Shown here in pieces: positions 58,050 through 64,000 of a stretch of DNA of 64,000 nucleotides (within the stretch, counting starts at the first letter, position 1; every line of letters begins with the position of its first letter). The notes beneath the pieces were generated by a model that saw only the letters and a list, made by a program, of their open reading frames with translations, was not told the origin of the DNA and did no database searches. The translations under genes and the position numbers were made by a program. Origin of the DNA: an uncultured Pseudomonadota bacterium (GTDB taxonomy: Bacteria; Myxococcota_A; Polyangia; Fen-1088); the NCBI GenBank assembly GCA_963779495.1, contig CAVZYM010000004.1, positions 25,497 through 89,496 of the forward strand, given 5' to 3'.

Positions 58050-58087
58050 TTGATGCGAGCGTCTCTGTATCTCTGAAAATCCAATAG

Positions 58088-58284
58088 CGCCTTCGGTGCC
58101 CATAAGGGGCATAACAGGGAAGCCGGAAGTCGGGCGAAAGCACGACCAGCCGGCGCGGTCCCGCCACTGTGTGTGGAGGCCGTCCTCGCGAACCCACTCG
58201 ACGAAATCGTCGGGGAAGGGGAGGACGGCCGCGCAACGACGAGAGTCGCGACGCGCTCCACGAGCCAGGAGACCTACCGAAGGC
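58088..58284 (+). ncRNA. Cobalamin riboswitch
   Basis: GGTGCCC..GGGGC ATAACAGGGAAGCCGG, GCGGTCCCGCCACTGT, GGGAAG, AGCCAGGAGACCTACCGA; P1 GCCTTCGGT/ACCGAAGGC; lies upstream of B12 uptake genes. Confidence 0.95.
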
Positions 58285-58344
58285 CGAAGCTTTCTTCTCC
58301 GCGCGGACGGAGATCGGCCCCGGCCCCCAACTTGGTCGCTGGTC

Positions 58345-58377
58345 AGCCCTTCGTCCCCGCGGAACGAGGGGTTTTTT
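58345..58377 (+). terminator. Riboswitch expression-platform hairpin (terminator that also covers the RBS)
   Basis: AGCCCTTCGT...ACGAGGGGTT followed by a T-tract; GAGGGG in the 3' stem is the likely SD of the TTG start at 58376. Confidence 0.7.
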
Positions 58378-59470
58378 GATCGCCACCGTCACCACCCACA
58401 ATCCGACCGCCGCCGACCGCGCCGCCGCCCGACGCGGCGCCCGCGCGCGGGTGGCGCTCGGATACGTGCTGGTGCTGGGCGCGGCGGCGGGGACGCTGGC
58501 GCTGGCGCTGCTGATCGGGCCCGCCGACGTCAGCCTCCAGTCGGTGCTGCAGGCGCTCGCCCGCCGCTTTCACGGGGCGGCCGGGCCGCTCCCCTGGCAG
58601 GACGTCGTCGTCTGGAGCGTGCGGCTCCCCCGGGCCCTGGTCGGCTTCGTCGTCGGTGGTGGCCTGGCGATCGCGGGCGCGGCGCTGCAGGGGCTGTTTC
58701 GCAACCCGCTGGCCGAGCCGGGCGTGCTGGGCATCTCGTCGGGGGCATCGCTCGGCGCGGTGCTGGCGATCTACTTCCACGTCGCCGGTCGCTTCGTCTG
58801 GATGCTTCCGGTTTGCGCCTTCGCGGGCGCGGCGGCCGACGCGATCCTGGTGTTCGCGATCGCGTCGCGGCGGGGGCGCGGGCGGCTGTTCACGGGGACG
58901 CTGCTGCTCGTCGGCGTGGCGATCATGGCGCTGAACACGTCGCTGACGACGTTCGTGCTGTCGGTGTCGCTGTCGAGCTACGACGTGGGCCGCCAGGTCG
59001 TCTACTGGCTGCTGGGCGGGCTCGAAGGGCGGACCTGGGACCACCTGCTGCTGGGGGCGCCGCCCATCCTGCTCGCCGCGATCGTGGTCGCGGCGCACGG
59101 CCGCGAGCTGGACGCGCTGATGCTGGGCGAGCTGGGGGCGCAGTCGGTCGGCATCGACGTGCCGCGCGTGCGGCTGCGGCTGTTGCTGGCGACGGCGGTG
59201 CTGGTGGGGGCGGCGATCGCCGTCGCCGGTCCGATCGGCTTCGTCGGTCTGCTGGTGCCGCACGTGATCCGGCTGGCGGTAGGTTCGGCGCACCGGGCGC
59301 TGCTGCCGCTGGCGTTCATCGGCGGCGGTGTCTTCCTGGTGATCGCCGACGTCGTCGCCCGGACTCTGCTGGTCGGGACCGAGATCCCCGTCGGCGTCGT
59401 GACGGCGACGGTCGGGGCGCCGGTCTTCCTGTTTCTCCTGGTGCGCAGGCGGGTCGAGGTGACGGCGTGA
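58376..59470 (+). CDS. btuC: FecCD/BtuC family ABC permease
   Basis: VRLPRALVG, LQGLFRNPLAEPGVLGISSGASLGA, LDALMLGE, GPIGFVGLLVPH, EIPVGVVTA; symbol inferred from riboswitch context. Confidence 0.88.
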   Translation: MIATVTTHNPTAADRAAARRGARARVALGYVLVLGAAAGTLALALLIGPADVSLQSVLQALARRFHGAAGPLPWQDVVVWSVRLPRALVGFVVGGGLAIAGAALQGLFRNPLAEPGVLGISSGASLGAVLAIYFHVAGRFVWMLPVCAFAGAAADAILVFAIASRRGRGRLFTGTLLLVGVAIMALNTSLTTFVLSVSLSSYDVGRQVVYWLLGGLEGRTWDHLLLGAPPILLAAIVVAAHGRELDALMLGELGAQSVGIDVPRVRLRLLLATAVLVGAAIAVAGPIGFVGLLVPHVIRLAVGSAHRALLPLAFIGGGVFLVIADVVARTLLVGTEIPVGVVTATVGAPVFLFLLVRRRVEVTA

Positions 59471-60270
59471 GCGCGCTGCTCGAGGTCGCGGGCGTCAGCT
59501 TCGGCTACGGCCGGCGCAGCGTGTTTCGTGACGTGTCGTTCGCCGTCAACCCCGGCGAGCTGGTCGCGCTCTGCGGGCCGAACGGCGCCGGCAAGTCGAC
59601 GCTGCTGCGGCTCATGCTGGGGCTGCACGCGCCGTCGGCGGGGACGGTGGCGCTGGCGGGCACGCCGGTCACCGCGCTCAGCCGGCGGGAGATCGCGCGC
59701 CGCGCGGCCCTCCTGCCCCAGGACGTGCCGGTCGACGTGCCGCTCACCGTGCGCGAGGCGGTGGCGCTGGGGCGGCTGCCGCACCTGGCCCGTTTTCAGC
59801 CCGAGTCGGAGGCCGACATCGCGGCGGTCGATCGCGCGCTGGCGGCCACCGACGCGACCTCCTTCGCCCAGCGCCCGGTCGACGAGCTGTCGGGCGGCGA
59901 GCGCCACCGCGTCCACCTGGCCCGGGCGCTGGCCCAGGAGGCGCCGCTCCTGCTGCTCGACGAGCCGATCGCGGGGCTCGATCTCGCCCACCAGCTGCAG
60001 GCGCTGGATCTGCTGCGGGCCACGGTCGCCGACGGTCGCGCGGCGGTGGTGGCGCTGCACGACCTGTCGCTGGCGGCCCGCAGCTGCCACCGCATGCTGC
60101 TGCTGGCCGACGGCGGGCTGCGCGCCGACGCCGCACCCGGCGCGGTGCTGACCGTCGACAACCTGGCGCGCTACTTCGGCGTCGACGCCGAGGTGCGTCT
60201 CGACGGCGCGGGGCGGCCGCTGGTGGTGCCGCTCGCGGCGCGGGCGGCGCGCGCGGAGGGCGACGCATGA
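59467..60270 (+). CDS. btuD: ABC transporter ATP-binding subunit (BtuD/FecE-like)
   Basis: GPNGAGKST, LSGGERHR, LLLDEP, LHDL; GTG start overlaps the permease stop. Confidence 0.9.
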   Translation: MSALLEVAGVSFGYGRRSVFRDVSFAVNPGELVALCGPNGAGKSTLLRLMLGLHAPSAGTVALAGTPVTALSRREIARRAALLPQDVPVDVPLTVREAVALGRLPHLARFQPESEADIAAVDRALAATDATSFAQRPVDELSGGERHRVHLARALAQEAPLLLLDEPIAGLDLAHQLQALDLLRATVADGRAAVVALHDLSLAARSCHRMLLLADGGLRADAAPGAVLTVDNLARYFGVDAEVRLDGAGRPLVVPLAARAARAEGDA

Positions 60271-62325
60271 TGGCCGTGCTGGCGATTGGCGCGATGCTGG
60301 CGGGCACGTCGGTCCCGCCCTCCGACGACGACGCGCCCGAAGCGGTGCCCGTGGCGACGGCGATACCGTCGTCGCCCGCGGGCGCAAGTGGCCCCACCGA
60401 GACGGTTGTCGTTGGCAGGAAGGATCCCGACGCCCTCCGCGAGGACCGCACCAGCGCCGGGTCGGTCGTGCGTCCGGCCGCCAGCCCGCGCGCCTTCGAC
60501 GACCTCGGGCAGATCCTGCTCGAGGTGCCGGGCGTGATCACCACCCGCACCGGCTCGCTGGGATCGTACGCCACGATCTCGCTGCGCGGCTCCAGCCCCG
60601 ACGAGGTGCGCATCTACCTGGACGGCGTGCCGCTCAACGGAGCCTCCGGGGGGGCCGTCGACGTCTCGGCGCTGCCCCTCGGCGACGTCGAGCGGGTCGA
60701 GGTCTACCGCGGCACCTCGCCGCTCGCGTTCGGCGAATCGGCGCTGGGCGGGATCGTGTCGATCACGACGCGCACGCCCGGGGCGCCGCGGCTGGACATG
60801 CGCGGCGGCGTCGCCTCGTTCGGGACCCGGTACGCCGACCTCACCGGCGGCGGGCAGGTGGGGCGGCTGAAGCTCTACGCCGGCGTGCACGGTCTGTCGG
60901 CCCGCGGCGACTACGGCTATCGCAACGACAACGGCACCGCGGCGAACCCCGGCGACGACGTCTACATGGCCCGGCAGAACAACGATCTGCGGGAGGCGAG
61001 CGGCGTGTTGCGCGCGGCGCTGGACCTGCCGGGGCGACGGAGCCTGAACCTCGGCGGCATCGGCTTCGGGCGCGAGCAGGGGCTCACCGGGCGGGGGGCC
61101 AACCCGACGGTGTGGGCCCGGTTCGCGACCAGCCGCGGGCTCGGCTACCTCCGCTACCAGTCGCGCGACGATCTCGGCCCCGGCGGGGAGCTCACCGCGC
61201 AGGTCTACGCCTCGGACCAGCGCGATCGCATCCGCGATCCCGAGGGCGAGCTCGGCGTCGGCGGGCCGCACCAGTCGCGCGAGGTCAGCCAGGCGCTGGG
61301 GACGACGGTGAATGGCAGCCGGCCGCTCACCGACTGGCTGCGCGTTGCGGCGGTCCTCGAGGCGCGGCGGGAGACCTTCCAGTCCTCCGACGCCGTCGAC
61401 ACGGTCCCGGTCGGGATTCCGGCGCGGCGCTCGACCGGCGTCGCGGGGACAGAGCTGGACGTCTACGCGCGCCAGCTGAACCTCGATGTCATCGCGTCGG
61501 CGCGGCTCGAGCTGGTGAACGACGTCGTGACCCAGGGCGCGACGGTCGATCCGGCGACGACCCACCGCCTGCCGGTGGTGCGGGCCGGCTTGGTGCGCCC
61601 GCTGGGAGCGCACGCGACGCTGAAGGCGAACCTGGGCCGCTACGCCCGGATGCCGACGTTCATCGAGTTCTACGGCAACGGCACCGGCCGGCTGGTCGGC
61701 AATGCGGATCTCCTCCCCGAGCGCGGCACCAACGGCGACGTCGCGCTCTGGATCGATCGCGAGCGGGTGACCAGCCGGACCGCGGTCTTCGGCGCGATGG
61801 TCGACGATCTCGATCCGCTGGCAGGCGTCGTCGTGGGGGCAGGCGCGGGCCGACAACCTGGCGCGGGCCAGAACCTGGGGCGTCGAGCAGGAGCTGCGGC
61901 TGGCGCTGGGGCGTCACGTCCGCACCGTCGCGCAGCTCACCTACCTGCAGGCCATCGACCAGAGCGACAACGCCGCGAGCCGGGGGCACCAGCTTCCGCT
62001 GCATCCGCGTCTCACCGGTTACCTTCGCCCGGAGCTGGTTGCGGTGCCGTTGCCGGGGGGGATGACTCTGGCCAGCTACGTGGACGTGGCCGTTCGCAGC
62101 GAGACCTACGCCGACAACGTCTACCTGCTGAAGCTGGGGCCGCGCGCCCTCATCGGCTGTGGTCTCACGGTGGCGGCGCCCCGGACGGGCCTCCGCTTCA
62201 CCGCGAGCGTCGCGAATCTCACCGACGATCGGCGCACCGACTTCGTCGACTGGGCGCTGCCCGGTCGGGCGCTGTTCGCGACCCTCGCCTACACCCCGTT
62301 TTTCGATCAGCGATTCGGACCATGA
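60267..62325 (+). CDS. btuB: TonB-dependent receptor (BtuB-like); apparent +1 frameshift near 61812
   Basis: Manual translation: plug ISLRGSSPDEVRIYLDGVPLN..GGAVDVSALPLGDVERVEVYRG...LGGIVSITTR; barrel strands; corrected frame ends VANLTDDRRTDFVDWALPGRALF...RFGP-TGA 62325. Confidence 0.9.
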
Positions 62326-62348
62326 CGGCAAACAAGGAGCGACGACGA

Positions 62349-64000
62349 ATGCGTTTTTCTCGTTTATTTCACTTTGGTTCTGGCTTGGGCCTCTGCGCGA
62401 CGGTGGCCCTGGCGGGCTGCGGGGGCTCGAACGACGATAGCGGTGCCGGCGGTAGCGGCGGCACCGTGGCAGGTTCGGGTGGAGGCGGCGGAGTCGGGGC
62501 CGGCGGCGCTGCCGGTACCGGTGTGGCGGGCAGTGACGGCGGGGCCGGTACCGGCGGCGCGGCAGCCGGGGTGGGCGGCGGCGCGCCGGTCGGTGGCAGC
62601 GGCGGTGCGGCCAGCGGTGGGAGAGGCGGCGCGCCGGTCGGTGGCAGCGGCGGCGCTCCGGTCGGCGGCAGCGGCGGCGGCGCGGGCGGCGCGCCTGTCG
62701 GCGGCAGCGGCGGCGGAGCGGTCGGTGGCGCGGGCGGCGCGCCTGTCGGTGGCAGCGGCGGCGGGGCGGTCAGCGGCGCGGGCGGCGGAGCGGTCGGTGG
62801 CGCGGGCGGCGGAGCGGTCGGTGGCGCGGGCGGCGCGCCTGTCGGTGGCAGCGGCGGCGGTCCGGTGGGAGGCAGCGGCGGCGCGGCGATCGTGCTGGCG
62901 GCGCCGCCGCCGGTCGGGTTCGCGGTCGTGAACAGCGACTTCTCCTCGACCAGCATCTCGCTGCTCAACAACAGCGGCGGCCTCGCGCACGCCGACTGCG
63001 TCCACTCGTCGACCTCCGGCGGCTCGAGCACCATCTCGAGCGATGTGACGCTCCCCTCGCAGCCGCAGCGCGGAAACCAGCTGGTGCTCATCGACCGCGG
63101 CAACGGCGCGCTCACCTTCCTCAATCCGACGACCTGCGAGATCGATCGGCAGTTCTCGGTGAAGGGCGGGCTCACCTTCCCGAACCCGCACGACGTCGTC
63201 ATTCTCGGCAACACGAAGGCCTACGTGACGCGCTACGAGCGCAACGCGGGCGTGACGCTGGGTGACGACCTCTACATCATCGATCCCGCGACCGGCGCGT
63301 CGGCGGGGCGGATCGATCTCAGCAGCTACGCCGCCCCGGTCTCGGGGAAGACGATCCAGGCCCGTCCCGATCGCGCGGTGCTCGCGAACGGTAAGGTGAT
63401 GGTGACGTTGAACAGCACGACGCCGTCGTACCCCTACACCTACGCGGAAGGGCGGCTGGTGGTCGTCGATCCCGCCACCGACACCGCCATCCAGAACTTG
63501 GCGCTGACGGGCCTCAAGAACTGCGAGGGGCTCGACTACCTGCCGGCGGCGAAGGTGGTGCTGGTCTCTTGCGCCGGCACGTTCAACTCGCCCGACCAGG
63601 CCCTGGAGTCGGGGATCGCGGTGGTCGACGTCGCGACGACGCCGATCAAGCTGAAACAGATCATCTCGGGGCAGGCGTTCGGCGCCGGTCCGGTGACCTT
63701 CCTCTGGGTGCTGGGCGCCCCGACGGCGACGCGGCCGAACCGCGCCTTCACCGCGACGTTCGGCTCGTTCGCCACGGCGACGTCGCCTGCGGCGCCGGAT
63801 CTGATCCAGATGTTCGACTTCGTCAGCGGCGCGACGACGTCGATCGCCTCGTCGACGGCGTTCGCTCTGGGCCGGCCCGCGGTGGGAAGCGGACGGTTGC
63901 TGATACCCGACGCGAAGGCGTCGCAGCCGCGCATCCACGTCTACGACATCACCGGCACGCCGACCGAGACCAGCGCGTTCGAGCCGGACCCGATCAACCA
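62349..64000 (+). CDS. Surface lipoprotein with about 150-aa Gly-rich linker and probable beta-propeller domain (runs off right edge)
   Basis: RBS AAGGAG; MRFSRLFHFGSGLGLCATVALAG-C lipobox; (GGAPVGGSG)n; then NPHDVVILGNTKAYVTRY, LYIIDPATG..AGRIDL, LVVVDPATD, IAVVDV blade-like motifs. Confidence 0.8.
   Translation, partial: MRFSRLFHFGSGLGLCATVALAGCGGSNDDSGAGGSGGTVAGSGGGGGVGAGGAAGTGVAGSDGGAGTGGAAAGVGGGAPVGGSGGAASGGRGGAPVGGSGGAPVGGSGGGAGGAPVGGSGGGAVGGAGGAPVGGSGGGAVSGAGGGAVGGAGGGAVGGAGGAPVGGSGGGPVGGSGGAAIVLAAPPPVGFAVVNSDFSSTSISLLNNSGGLAHADCVHSSTSGGSSTISSDVTLPSQPQRGNQLVLIDRGNGALTFLNPTTCEIDRQFSVKGGLTFPNPHDVVILGNTKAYVTRYERNAGVTLGDDLYIIDPATGASAGRIDLSSYAAPVSGKTIQARPDRAVLANGKVMVTLNSTTPSYPYTYAEGRLVVVDPATDTAIQNLALTGLKNCEGLDYLPAAKVVLVSCAGTFNSPDQALESGIAVVDVATTPIKLKQIISGQAFGAGPVTFLWVLGAPTATRPNRAFTATFGSFATATSPAAPDLIQMFDFVSGATTSIASSTAFALGRPAVGSGRLLIPDAKASQPRIHVYDITGTPTETSAFEPDPIN
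62440..62895 (+). repeat. Imperfect coding tandem repeats (GGAPVGGSGG / GGAVGGAGG)
   Basis: Recurrent GGCGGCGCGCC(G/T)GTCGG(T/C)GGCAGCGGC and GGCGGAGCGGTCGGTGGCGCG units. Confidence 0.85.

Follow-up and report, generated by a model that had tools for sequence, protein, structure and literature searches.

How vitamin B12 (cobalamin) might be captured at the envelope of bacteria outside the Bacteroidota is the question raised by an operon in the stretch of DNA analysed here (the window; 64,000 nucleotides (nt), C4:25497-89496 of a 6.23-Mb, 5-contig assembly with 70% GC from a Myxococcota-type host). In this operon, which is led by a cobalamin riboswitch, the gene immediately downstream of a BtuB-like TonB-dependent receptor encodes a lipoprotein with a predicted β-propeller domain, and BtuG of Bacteroides thetaiotaomicron is encoded in the same position of a B12-riboswitch uptake locus. 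BtuG homologues were found exclusively in Bacteroidetes by BLASTP (Wexler et al. 2018, PMC6143338), lipoprotein-capped TonB-dependent transporters have been stated to be exclusive to Bacteroidetes (PMC10404256, 10.1101/2023.03.17.533168), and Price and Arkin found conserved proximity of receptor and lid almost only in Bacteroidota (10.1101/2023.03.17.533168). Full-text literature searches (BtuG; DUF5074; Myxococcus together with BtuB and lipoprotein) returned no such protein described outside Bacteroidota. We consider it probable that the propeller is a corrinoid-capturing lipoprotein partner of the BtuB-like receptor, in an operon repressed by B12 through the riboswitch. The broader proposal, that lipoprotein-assisted B12 capture is not confined to Bacteroidota and that, across Myxococcota, a BtuG-fold family fulfils this role next to BtuB-like receptors, is more tentative.

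The riboswitch aptamer (RF00174) was located at 58077-58295 (+) with the Rfam covariance model in cmscan, where it scored 89.4 bits (E = 2.7e-21) over the whole of model positions 1-189, the gathering score being 31.5 bits, which indicates a complete member of the family; it also aligned closely with riboswitches at the equivalent position in relatives. A hairpin read from the sequence (CCCUUCGU...ACGAGGGG) and followed by six U residues at 58346-58381 (+) is a candidate expression platform. When 58296-58385 was folded alone, the minimum-energy structure was a longer hairpin that competes with it, in line with an anti-terminator alternative, and the competition between the two would correspond to the usual layout of a transcriptional off-switch. 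Note that a simple terminator scan did not list this hairpin and U-tract, and that a sigma-70 promoter scan gave no match upstream of the riboswitch.

Gene models in the window were drawn from a frame plot of GC content at third codon positions (GC3) together with Pfam and NCBIfam scans. The riboswitch is followed on the same strand by genes for a BtuC-like ATP-binding cassette (ABC) permease (about 58376-59470, +; frame plot and Pfam FecCD, 3.2e-87), a BtuD-like ABC ATPase (59467-60270, +; Pfam ABC_tran, 9.8e-34), the BtuB-like receptor (60267-62325, +; Plug domain, with a frameshift near 61808), the lipoprotein (62322-64031, +; stop TGA 64029-64031, 31 nt past the window edge) and, just outside the window, a BtuF-like binding protein (64028-65011, +; Pfam Peripla_BP_2). 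The permease start is ambiguous (TTG 58376 or GTG 58451); its top NCBIfam matches were BtuC models, and that of the ATPase was a corrinoid ABC transporter ATPase (2.6e-83), both under the cut-off, which for the permease is the equivalog one. All four junctions are 4-nt overlaps, namely GTGA (permease/ATPase), ATGA (ATPase/receptor), ATGA (receptor/lipoprotein) and TTGA (lipoprotein/btuF-like), indicating one translationally coupled five-gene operon. The original prediction, made from the letters of the window, had proposed a riboswitch-led series of permease, ATPase, TonB receptor and lipobox lipoprotein, and each of these parts was recovered by Rfam, Pfam or the LAGC motif. Its remark on the lack of a BtuF-like binder inside the window is literally true but reflects an edge effect, as the Peripla_BP_2 gene begins at 64028. 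That gene has a TTG start, and its N-terminus (GRGRRWALGALVAG) resembles a twin-arginine signal.

The lipoprotein is 569 amino acids (aa) long from the start that overlaps the receptor stop in ATGA, which is also the start in the relative P0007, and 560 aa from the second Met. It opens with a signal peptide and lipobox (MTANKERRRMRFSRLFHFGSGLGLCATVALAG-C; LAGC motif; 62322-62420, +) of the form ...VALAG-C expected of a lipoprotein signal, with residue 33 as the lipid Cys. Composition and tandem repeats mark the next 162 aa as a Gly-rich disordered tether of GGAPVGGS-type units (62421-62903, +), and the remaining 375 aa (62904-64000, +, and onward to the TGA) form a domain with no sequence match in Pfam, NCBIfam or the PDB. 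An AlphaFold2 model of this domain, built from a 72-sequence alignment, was all-beta with 28 strands and had a predicted local distance difference test score (pLDDT) of 95.5 and a predicted template modelling score (pTM) of 0.94; the strands may be arranged as seven four-stranded blades with a 2+2 'velcro' closure between the termini.

The model was compared with 350,542 PDB chains by Foldseek. Ranks 1-16 were taken entirely by BtuG1, BtuG2 and BtuG3, alone, with cobalamins or with BtuB, or by 3DSM, at E = 9e-11 to 4e-10 and 11-14% identity; template modelling (TM) scores by query were 0.60-0.66, and those by target were 0.67-0.74 where the chain was BtuG only. PDB entries for BtuG1/2/3 are 3DSM, 8BAI, 8BMY, 8BMZ, 8BN0, 8OKV and 8PTD and the complexes 8BMX, 8BLW and 8P97. 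The next matches were a YVTN propeller (1e-8), AztD (1.5e-8), XusB (5e-8) and YncE (2e-7). As a replicate, the domain of a relative with 30% identity (locus L078) was modelled from an alignment drawn solely from genome loci; it reached a pLDDT of 95.3, and BtuG chains occupied ranks 1-13 (E = 5.5e-14 to 1.7e-12; next match 3.5e-10). Since the replicate agrees, the likeness to BtuG belongs to the family as a whole and is no quirk of one model, and over both models the TM scores against BtuG were 0.60-0.68 by query and up to 0.76 by target. The propeller-like blades of the original prediction are thus borne out as a seven-bladed model whose best PDB matches are BtuG, ahead of YncE. BtuG1/2/3 (PF16819/DUF5074) are likewise lipoproteins with a seven-bladed propeller. 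The window domain differs from them in being larger (375 aa versus about 320-340) and in belonging to a family with four conserved Cys residues, two of which were invariant in every alignment; these would fit an extracytoplasmic location. The motifs LPSQPQ and KAYVTRY are also strongly conserved in the family. Its invariant residues include D64, D97, Y107, D122, D189 and D299, and R110 varies little if at all.

We next examined how the family is distributed and what lies beside it. A word-indexed search gave 441 family proteins, all annotated 'hypothetical', and an exhaustive HMMER search of cluster representatives gave 805 clusters at E up to 0.001. Taking one genome per species yielded 79 species-level loci, labelled Polyangia, Myxococcales, Myxococcota, Kofleriaceae, Polyangiaceae, or with the older 'delta/proteobacterium', plus one named strain. 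In an even sample of the phylum (251 genomes, 178 genera; E up to 1e-10), a member was present in 74 genomes (~29%) and 48 genera. Locus context was mapped by tblastn with the window proteins, nhmmer and Rfam covariance scans. Note that nhmmer with a local riboswitch alignment overlooked divergent riboswitches (L039, L066), and such loci were re-scanned with the Rfam covariance models. A related BtuB-like receptor was directly upstream on the same strand at 58 of the 64 loci with enough upstream sequence, and a cobalamin riboswitch was upstream on the same strand at 54 of the 61 assessable loci, including relatives with only 30% identity. The adjacency to a receptor and a corrinoid riboswitch that marks BtuG is therefore found in the window and in its relatives, and the synteny check that accompanied the original prediction came out in its favour. 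The commonest layout was riboswitch, receptor and lipoprotein alone (38 of the 54 riboswitch-led loci), and the five-gene layout of the window occurred at 7 loci; two further loci have the riboswitch directly before the lipoprotein with no receptor between. The genomes that carry the family have just one to three cobalamin riboswitches each, indicating that the linkage between lipoprotein and riboswitch is not a by-product of riboswitch abundance.

The receptor itself matched the TonB-B12 model TIGR01779 over the plug region only (E = 2.3e-19; 69.4 bits against a cut-off of 599.7) and did not reach equivalog level (TIGR01779 / NF007926). Its intact 692-aa orthologue on contig L086 had E. coli BtuB as the top PDB sequence match (3.8e-17), with the B. 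thetaiotaomicron BtuB proteins a few ranks below. By best match and context, the window receptor appears to be BtuB-like. We propose that the propeller, carried by a lipoprotein of the outer membrane and facing the outside of the cell, would bind corrinoids, dock on the co-transcribed BtuB-like receptor and hand them over, and that BtuF and BtuCD would complete their import. When intracellular B12 is high, the riboswitch would shut off all five genes, probably through the post-aptamer hairpin and U-tract.

Several observations weigh against this proposal. Identity to BtuG is only 12-15%, the TM scores of 0.60-0.68 are moderate, and the seven-bladed propeller is a common fold. The window protein had no match to PF16819 (DUF5074) at E up to 10, and two inspected relatives scored ~13 bits where the cut-off is 27.2; their registers were inconsistent, as is expected when single blades match. 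The linkage also has exceptions. Locus L007, a second copy, reads permease-ATPase-lipoprotein-binder with no receptor or riboswitch; L006, also a second copy, has none of the other operon genes and no riboswitch nearby; and the riboswitch is missing at five loci (L050, L057, L061, L076, L080). In addition, the receptor gene is frameshifted in the assembly, and the Gly-rich tether of 162 aa differs from the short hinged linker of BtuG2 (PMC10404256). To our knowledge, no export of lipoproteins to the cell surface has been established in this lineage. As L006 and L007 belong to the same genomes as L043 and L022, respectively, these second copies suggest that paralogues differ in their partners or regulation. 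L057, the sole locus of a named species (Corallococcus llansteffanensis CA051B, NZ_RAWB01000295.1, 5645-8894), has a receptor-lipoprotein pair whose lipoprotein is 39% identical to the window protein, and no cobalamin riboswitch was found within 7.8 kb upstream.

The sequence relationship to BtuG was followed further. DUF5074 was the commonest weak Pfam match among relatives (31 of 72, best E = 2.6e-4), all of them sub-threshold, and a six-frame search of the genome with PF16819 did not pick up the lipoprotein gene, giving two unrelated weak matches (best 19.2 bits). Weak Pfam matches to glutamine cyclotransferase, NHL and BamB were set aside as single-blade similarity and not membership. Profile A3, made from 93 cluster representatives of the family, had E. 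coli YncE as its best match among PDB sequences (7.8e-4); the nine BtuG-family PDB sequences matched weakly (six at E = 0.04-0.08, three near 0.6) and in one register, positions 169-246. YncE is encoded beside the TonB-dependent receptor YncD. YncE and the archaeal YVTN propellers (PDB entries of this group: 3VGZ and 1L0Q) have the same blade type as the window domain, including the KAYVTRY motif. However, YncE is soluble and periplasmic, with no lipid anchor and no established B12 link, and its fold match is weaker (E about 2e-7). In our reading, the lipoprotein belongs to the YncE/YVTN-type propeller superfamily and has the BtuG proteins as its nearest solved neighbours, although it falls outside the BtuG family as Pfam defines it. 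Its family would then either share a very old ancestor with BtuG among the YncE/YVTN propellers or have been recruited by convergence to the position that BtuG occupies.

The place of the window gene between receptor and btuF, overlapping both, could also be that of a chaperone that faces the periplasm from an anchor in either the outer membrane (inner leaflet) or the inner membrane, and whose tether would let the propeller carry corrinoid from the periplasmic exit of the receptor to BtuF. AztD offers a precedent. This propeller, the periplasmic zinc chaperone of the AztABCD ABC transporter, is likewise encoded in a transporter operon, passes zinc to the binding protein AztC, and was among the fold matches of the window model (E = 1.5e-8). 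A long flexible tether suits movement across the periplasm, the receptor-less L007 retains permease, ATPase and binder, and the want of an established surface-export route points the same way. However, AztD fits far worse than BtuG (TM 0.48, root-mean-square deviation 9.8 Å) and was absent from the top 50 matches of the L078 model; it is not a lipoprotein, and its partner is an ABC binding protein, whereas the window family sits beside an outer-membrane receptor. Because the layout of riboswitch, receptor and lipoprotein alone is the commonest, these loci having no adjacent ABC or binder gene, the conserved partner is the receptor. Moreover, E. coli-type systems need no such shuttle. The riboswitch and the BtuB-like, BtuC, BtuD and BtuF-like parts of the E. 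coli BtuB-BtuFCD system are all present in the window operon, whereas a lipoprotein partner is absent from E. coli, where the genes lie scattered and are not joined in one coupled five-gene operon. We therefore regard a periplasmic shuttle as unlikely, though the strongest of the alternatives, and return to capture outside the cell.

If the receptor is the conserved partner, the propeller might still accompany it without binding B12, as a subunit with a structural, assembly or shielding role (for instance a scaffold like BamB, or a cap that keeps phages or bacteriocins out); its co-regulation would then reflect only that it has to be present each time the receptor is produced. Close adjacency to the receptor (58 of 64 loci) would follow from this as well, BamB propellers were among the weaker fold matches, and the ligand-binding residues are only putative. 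Against it, ligand-binding lids lead the fold matches by two to three orders of E value, BtuG first and XusB lower. XusB (DUF4374), the xenosiderophore-binding lid of Bacteroides XusA, is likewise a propeller lipoprotein that partners a non-SusC TonB-dependent receptor, and it was among the fold matches of both models (E = 3e-9 to 1.7e-7); it is a clearly worse match than BtuG, binds siderophores and has no link to B12 riboswitches. Conserved loop motifs (such as LPSQPQ) and four conserved Cys are features more usual in a binding site than in a scaffold, and at the two loci where the riboswitch directly precedes the lipoprotein there is no receptor between. A non-binding partner seems improbable to us.

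The invariant D97 and D122, with R110, could instead belong to an active site, in which case corrinoids or their carriers would be the substrates of an envelope enzyme, one that for instance frees B12 from proteins or remodels corrinoids before uptake. In line with this, 28 of 72 members resemble the Pfam glutamine cyclotransferase family weakly, and lactonase and dehydrogenase propellers were among the lower fold matches. All enzyme matches, however, were sub-threshold and covered single blades, no enzyme came near BtuG in the fold ranking, and Pfam, NCBIfam and PDB sequence searches recognised no catalytic motif, so that we give an enzymatic role very little credence. Capture of corrinoids for the receptor remains our preferred reading.

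The frameshift of the receptor bears on whether the window operon is functional. The long open frame behind the stretch given in the original prediction (60267-64000) is not one gene. Because of a 1-nt insertion in the receptor near 61808 (a G between GACGATCTC and ATCCGCTGG), the open reading frame (ORF) at 60267-63998 is a fusion of the first part of the receptor, an out-of-frame read-through and the lipoprotein, which has its own gene at 62322-64031; the public gene call for the locus is the same fusion, a 1254-aa ORF (P0124). The plug and most of the barrel are encoded at 60267-61808 (+; Pfam Plug, 5.3e-18) and the last part in the +1 frame at 61809-62325 (+), as judged from a GC3 frame switch at ~61800 and alignment to relatives. 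Frame 0 runs to ...FGAMVDDL, and the protein resumes in the +1 frame as IRWQ...ARADNLARARTWGVEQELRL... up to the stop at 62325; in relatives the alignment (...FGAMVDDL / IRWQ...ARADN...GVEQELR) is continuous over the shift, and intact receptors have 692-696 aa in one frame. Programmed frameshifting was considered and rejected, as the site GATCTCGATCC is not slippery, relatives are single-frame and the assembly breaks rpoB too.

The insertion is probably an assembly indel and not the mark of a pseudogene, because GC3 (0.94-0.96) and similarity to relatives are undiminished on either side of it and the same assembly damages essential genes: rpoB domain 6 is spread over four frames within 1.7 kb (G000 C5:2599184-2600885), the rpoC open frame is just 978 aa, nrdA behind the other B12 riboswitch of the genome is likewise split (L087 5272-7811), and estimated completeness is 68% despite the 5 contigs. 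Sister assemblies (L085, L068) showed similar gene fragmentation, and the contig L086, from a different source (JGI), carries the whole operon intact with a receptor of 692 aa. That the operon is decaying, with a real frameshift that leaves the lipoprotein without a partner in the host organism, is thus highly improbable in spite of the split receptor and the fused public call. Note that, with many single-base indels in the assembly, gene calls including P0124 need care.

Whether the lipoprotein could reach the cell surface was considered from its N-terminus. Among 267 aligned family proteins, 178 had a Met start and a lipobox-like motif, and most of the others were fragments. The residue after the lipid Cys is Gly in the window protein and mostly S, G or A in the family, with Asp in ~10% and Lys or Arg in ~1%. 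Retention in the inner membrane is directed by Asp in E. coli and by Lys in M. xanthus, and the family residue thus appears mostly to fall outside the known retention residues. Further along, the family was enriched in acidic residues (Asp made up 45% at +3 and Asp/Glu 32% at +4, where the 365 lipoprotein candidates of the genome described below had 8-12%); a typical N-terminus is C-S-D-D-P-R, and that of the window protein is C-G-G-S-N-D-D-S (62421-62445). By analogy, this enrichment recalls the acidic lipoprotein export signal of Bacteroidota. We keep it as an observation only, since the family members are related to one another and we know of no such signal in a Myxococcota-type phylum.

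The tether was predicted at about 150 aa of Gly/Ser/Ala repeats, close to the 162 aa found (51% Gly, 19% Ala, 9% Ser). Its coding DNA consists of degenerate tandem repeats with a period of 24/48 nt and up to 13.8 copies. In the family, linkers between lipid Cys and propeller have a median length of 36 aa and extremes of about 10 and 189 aa, so that the window tether is in the top 5% or so; ~10 sampled relatives have 140-190 aa. The tethers of close relatives have other lengths and other repeat units, indicating that tether length evolves fast through gain and loss of repeats. To see how common such tethers are, we collected the lipoprotein candidates of the genome (signal peptide and lipobox pattern; n = 365). 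Gly/Ser/Ala/Pro/Thr-rich tethers directly after the lipobox were at least 50 aa long in 42 candidates and at least 100 aa in 28, examples being C3:689548 (+), C3:785070 (-) and C5:299291 (-). Given this frequency and the wide range of lengths within the family, a long tether is a generic lipoprotein habit of the genome or lineage, and the suggestion that it is a B12-specific extension of reach was not upheld. Fully stretched, 162 residues could nevertheless reach tens of nanometres, and the protein would then be a loosely tethered catcher, unlike the tightly hinged lid of BtuG2, in which BtuB loops hold the short linker that serves as the hinge (PMC10404256).

If the preferred reading is correct, the principle of the lipoprotein-capped receptor would be widened to another phylum, the soil Myxococcota, and proteins of the long-tether subclade would fish for their ligand on a flexible line instead of closing as a hinged lid. 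Such bacteria could then place lipoproteins on the cell surface, which raises the question of how, or whether, Myxococcota export them there. The reading would also bear on competition for corrinoids in soil, and the family would provide a second, sequence-unrelated scaffold for very tight B12 binding as a useful reagent; BtuG2 is already in use to strip corrinoids from soil extracts (10.1101/2024.02.12.580003).

The host genome has one copy of the lipoprotein and two cobalamin riboswitches. The other riboswitch, at C3:300060-300265 (-) (L087), precedes the large subunit of a class I, B12-independent ribonucleotide reductase, a classic arrangement where an organism uses B12 as well. In the imperfect assembly, a six-frame search found no CbiC, a marker of corrin-ring synthesis, and at least three B12-binding domains above threshold; allowing for the state of the assembly, this fits a B12 user that depends on scavenging. 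Two DUF4215 proteins with Cys-rich repeats follow the ribonucleotide reductase. The family profile gave its best matches in other classes of the phylum (to 7.5e-84), and the best in the class of the host genome was 5.5e-66, indicating either a misplaced, error-rich assembly or movement of the operon between lineages.

At its far end, the B12 operon is bounded by a convergent gene for a glycoside hydrolase family 6 (GH6) glycosidase of the cellulase/cellobiohydrolase family (65141-66481, -), in keeping with a saprotrophic lifestyle. At five loci of the family (L018, L022, L023, L043, L047) a second, convergent cobalamin riboswitch was found ~3-5 kb downstream of the lipoprotein on the opposite strand. 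In L022 it leads two proteins without Pfam matches, P0271 and P0272 (10777-13983). P0271 is a lipoprotein with a GGAGGQ tether of roughly 90 aa, and P0272, which may be one too, has a Cys-rich region followed by the motif FAVFENSF...VEVSSDG in its C-terminal domain; the two add to the candidates for B12-regulated envelope proteins.

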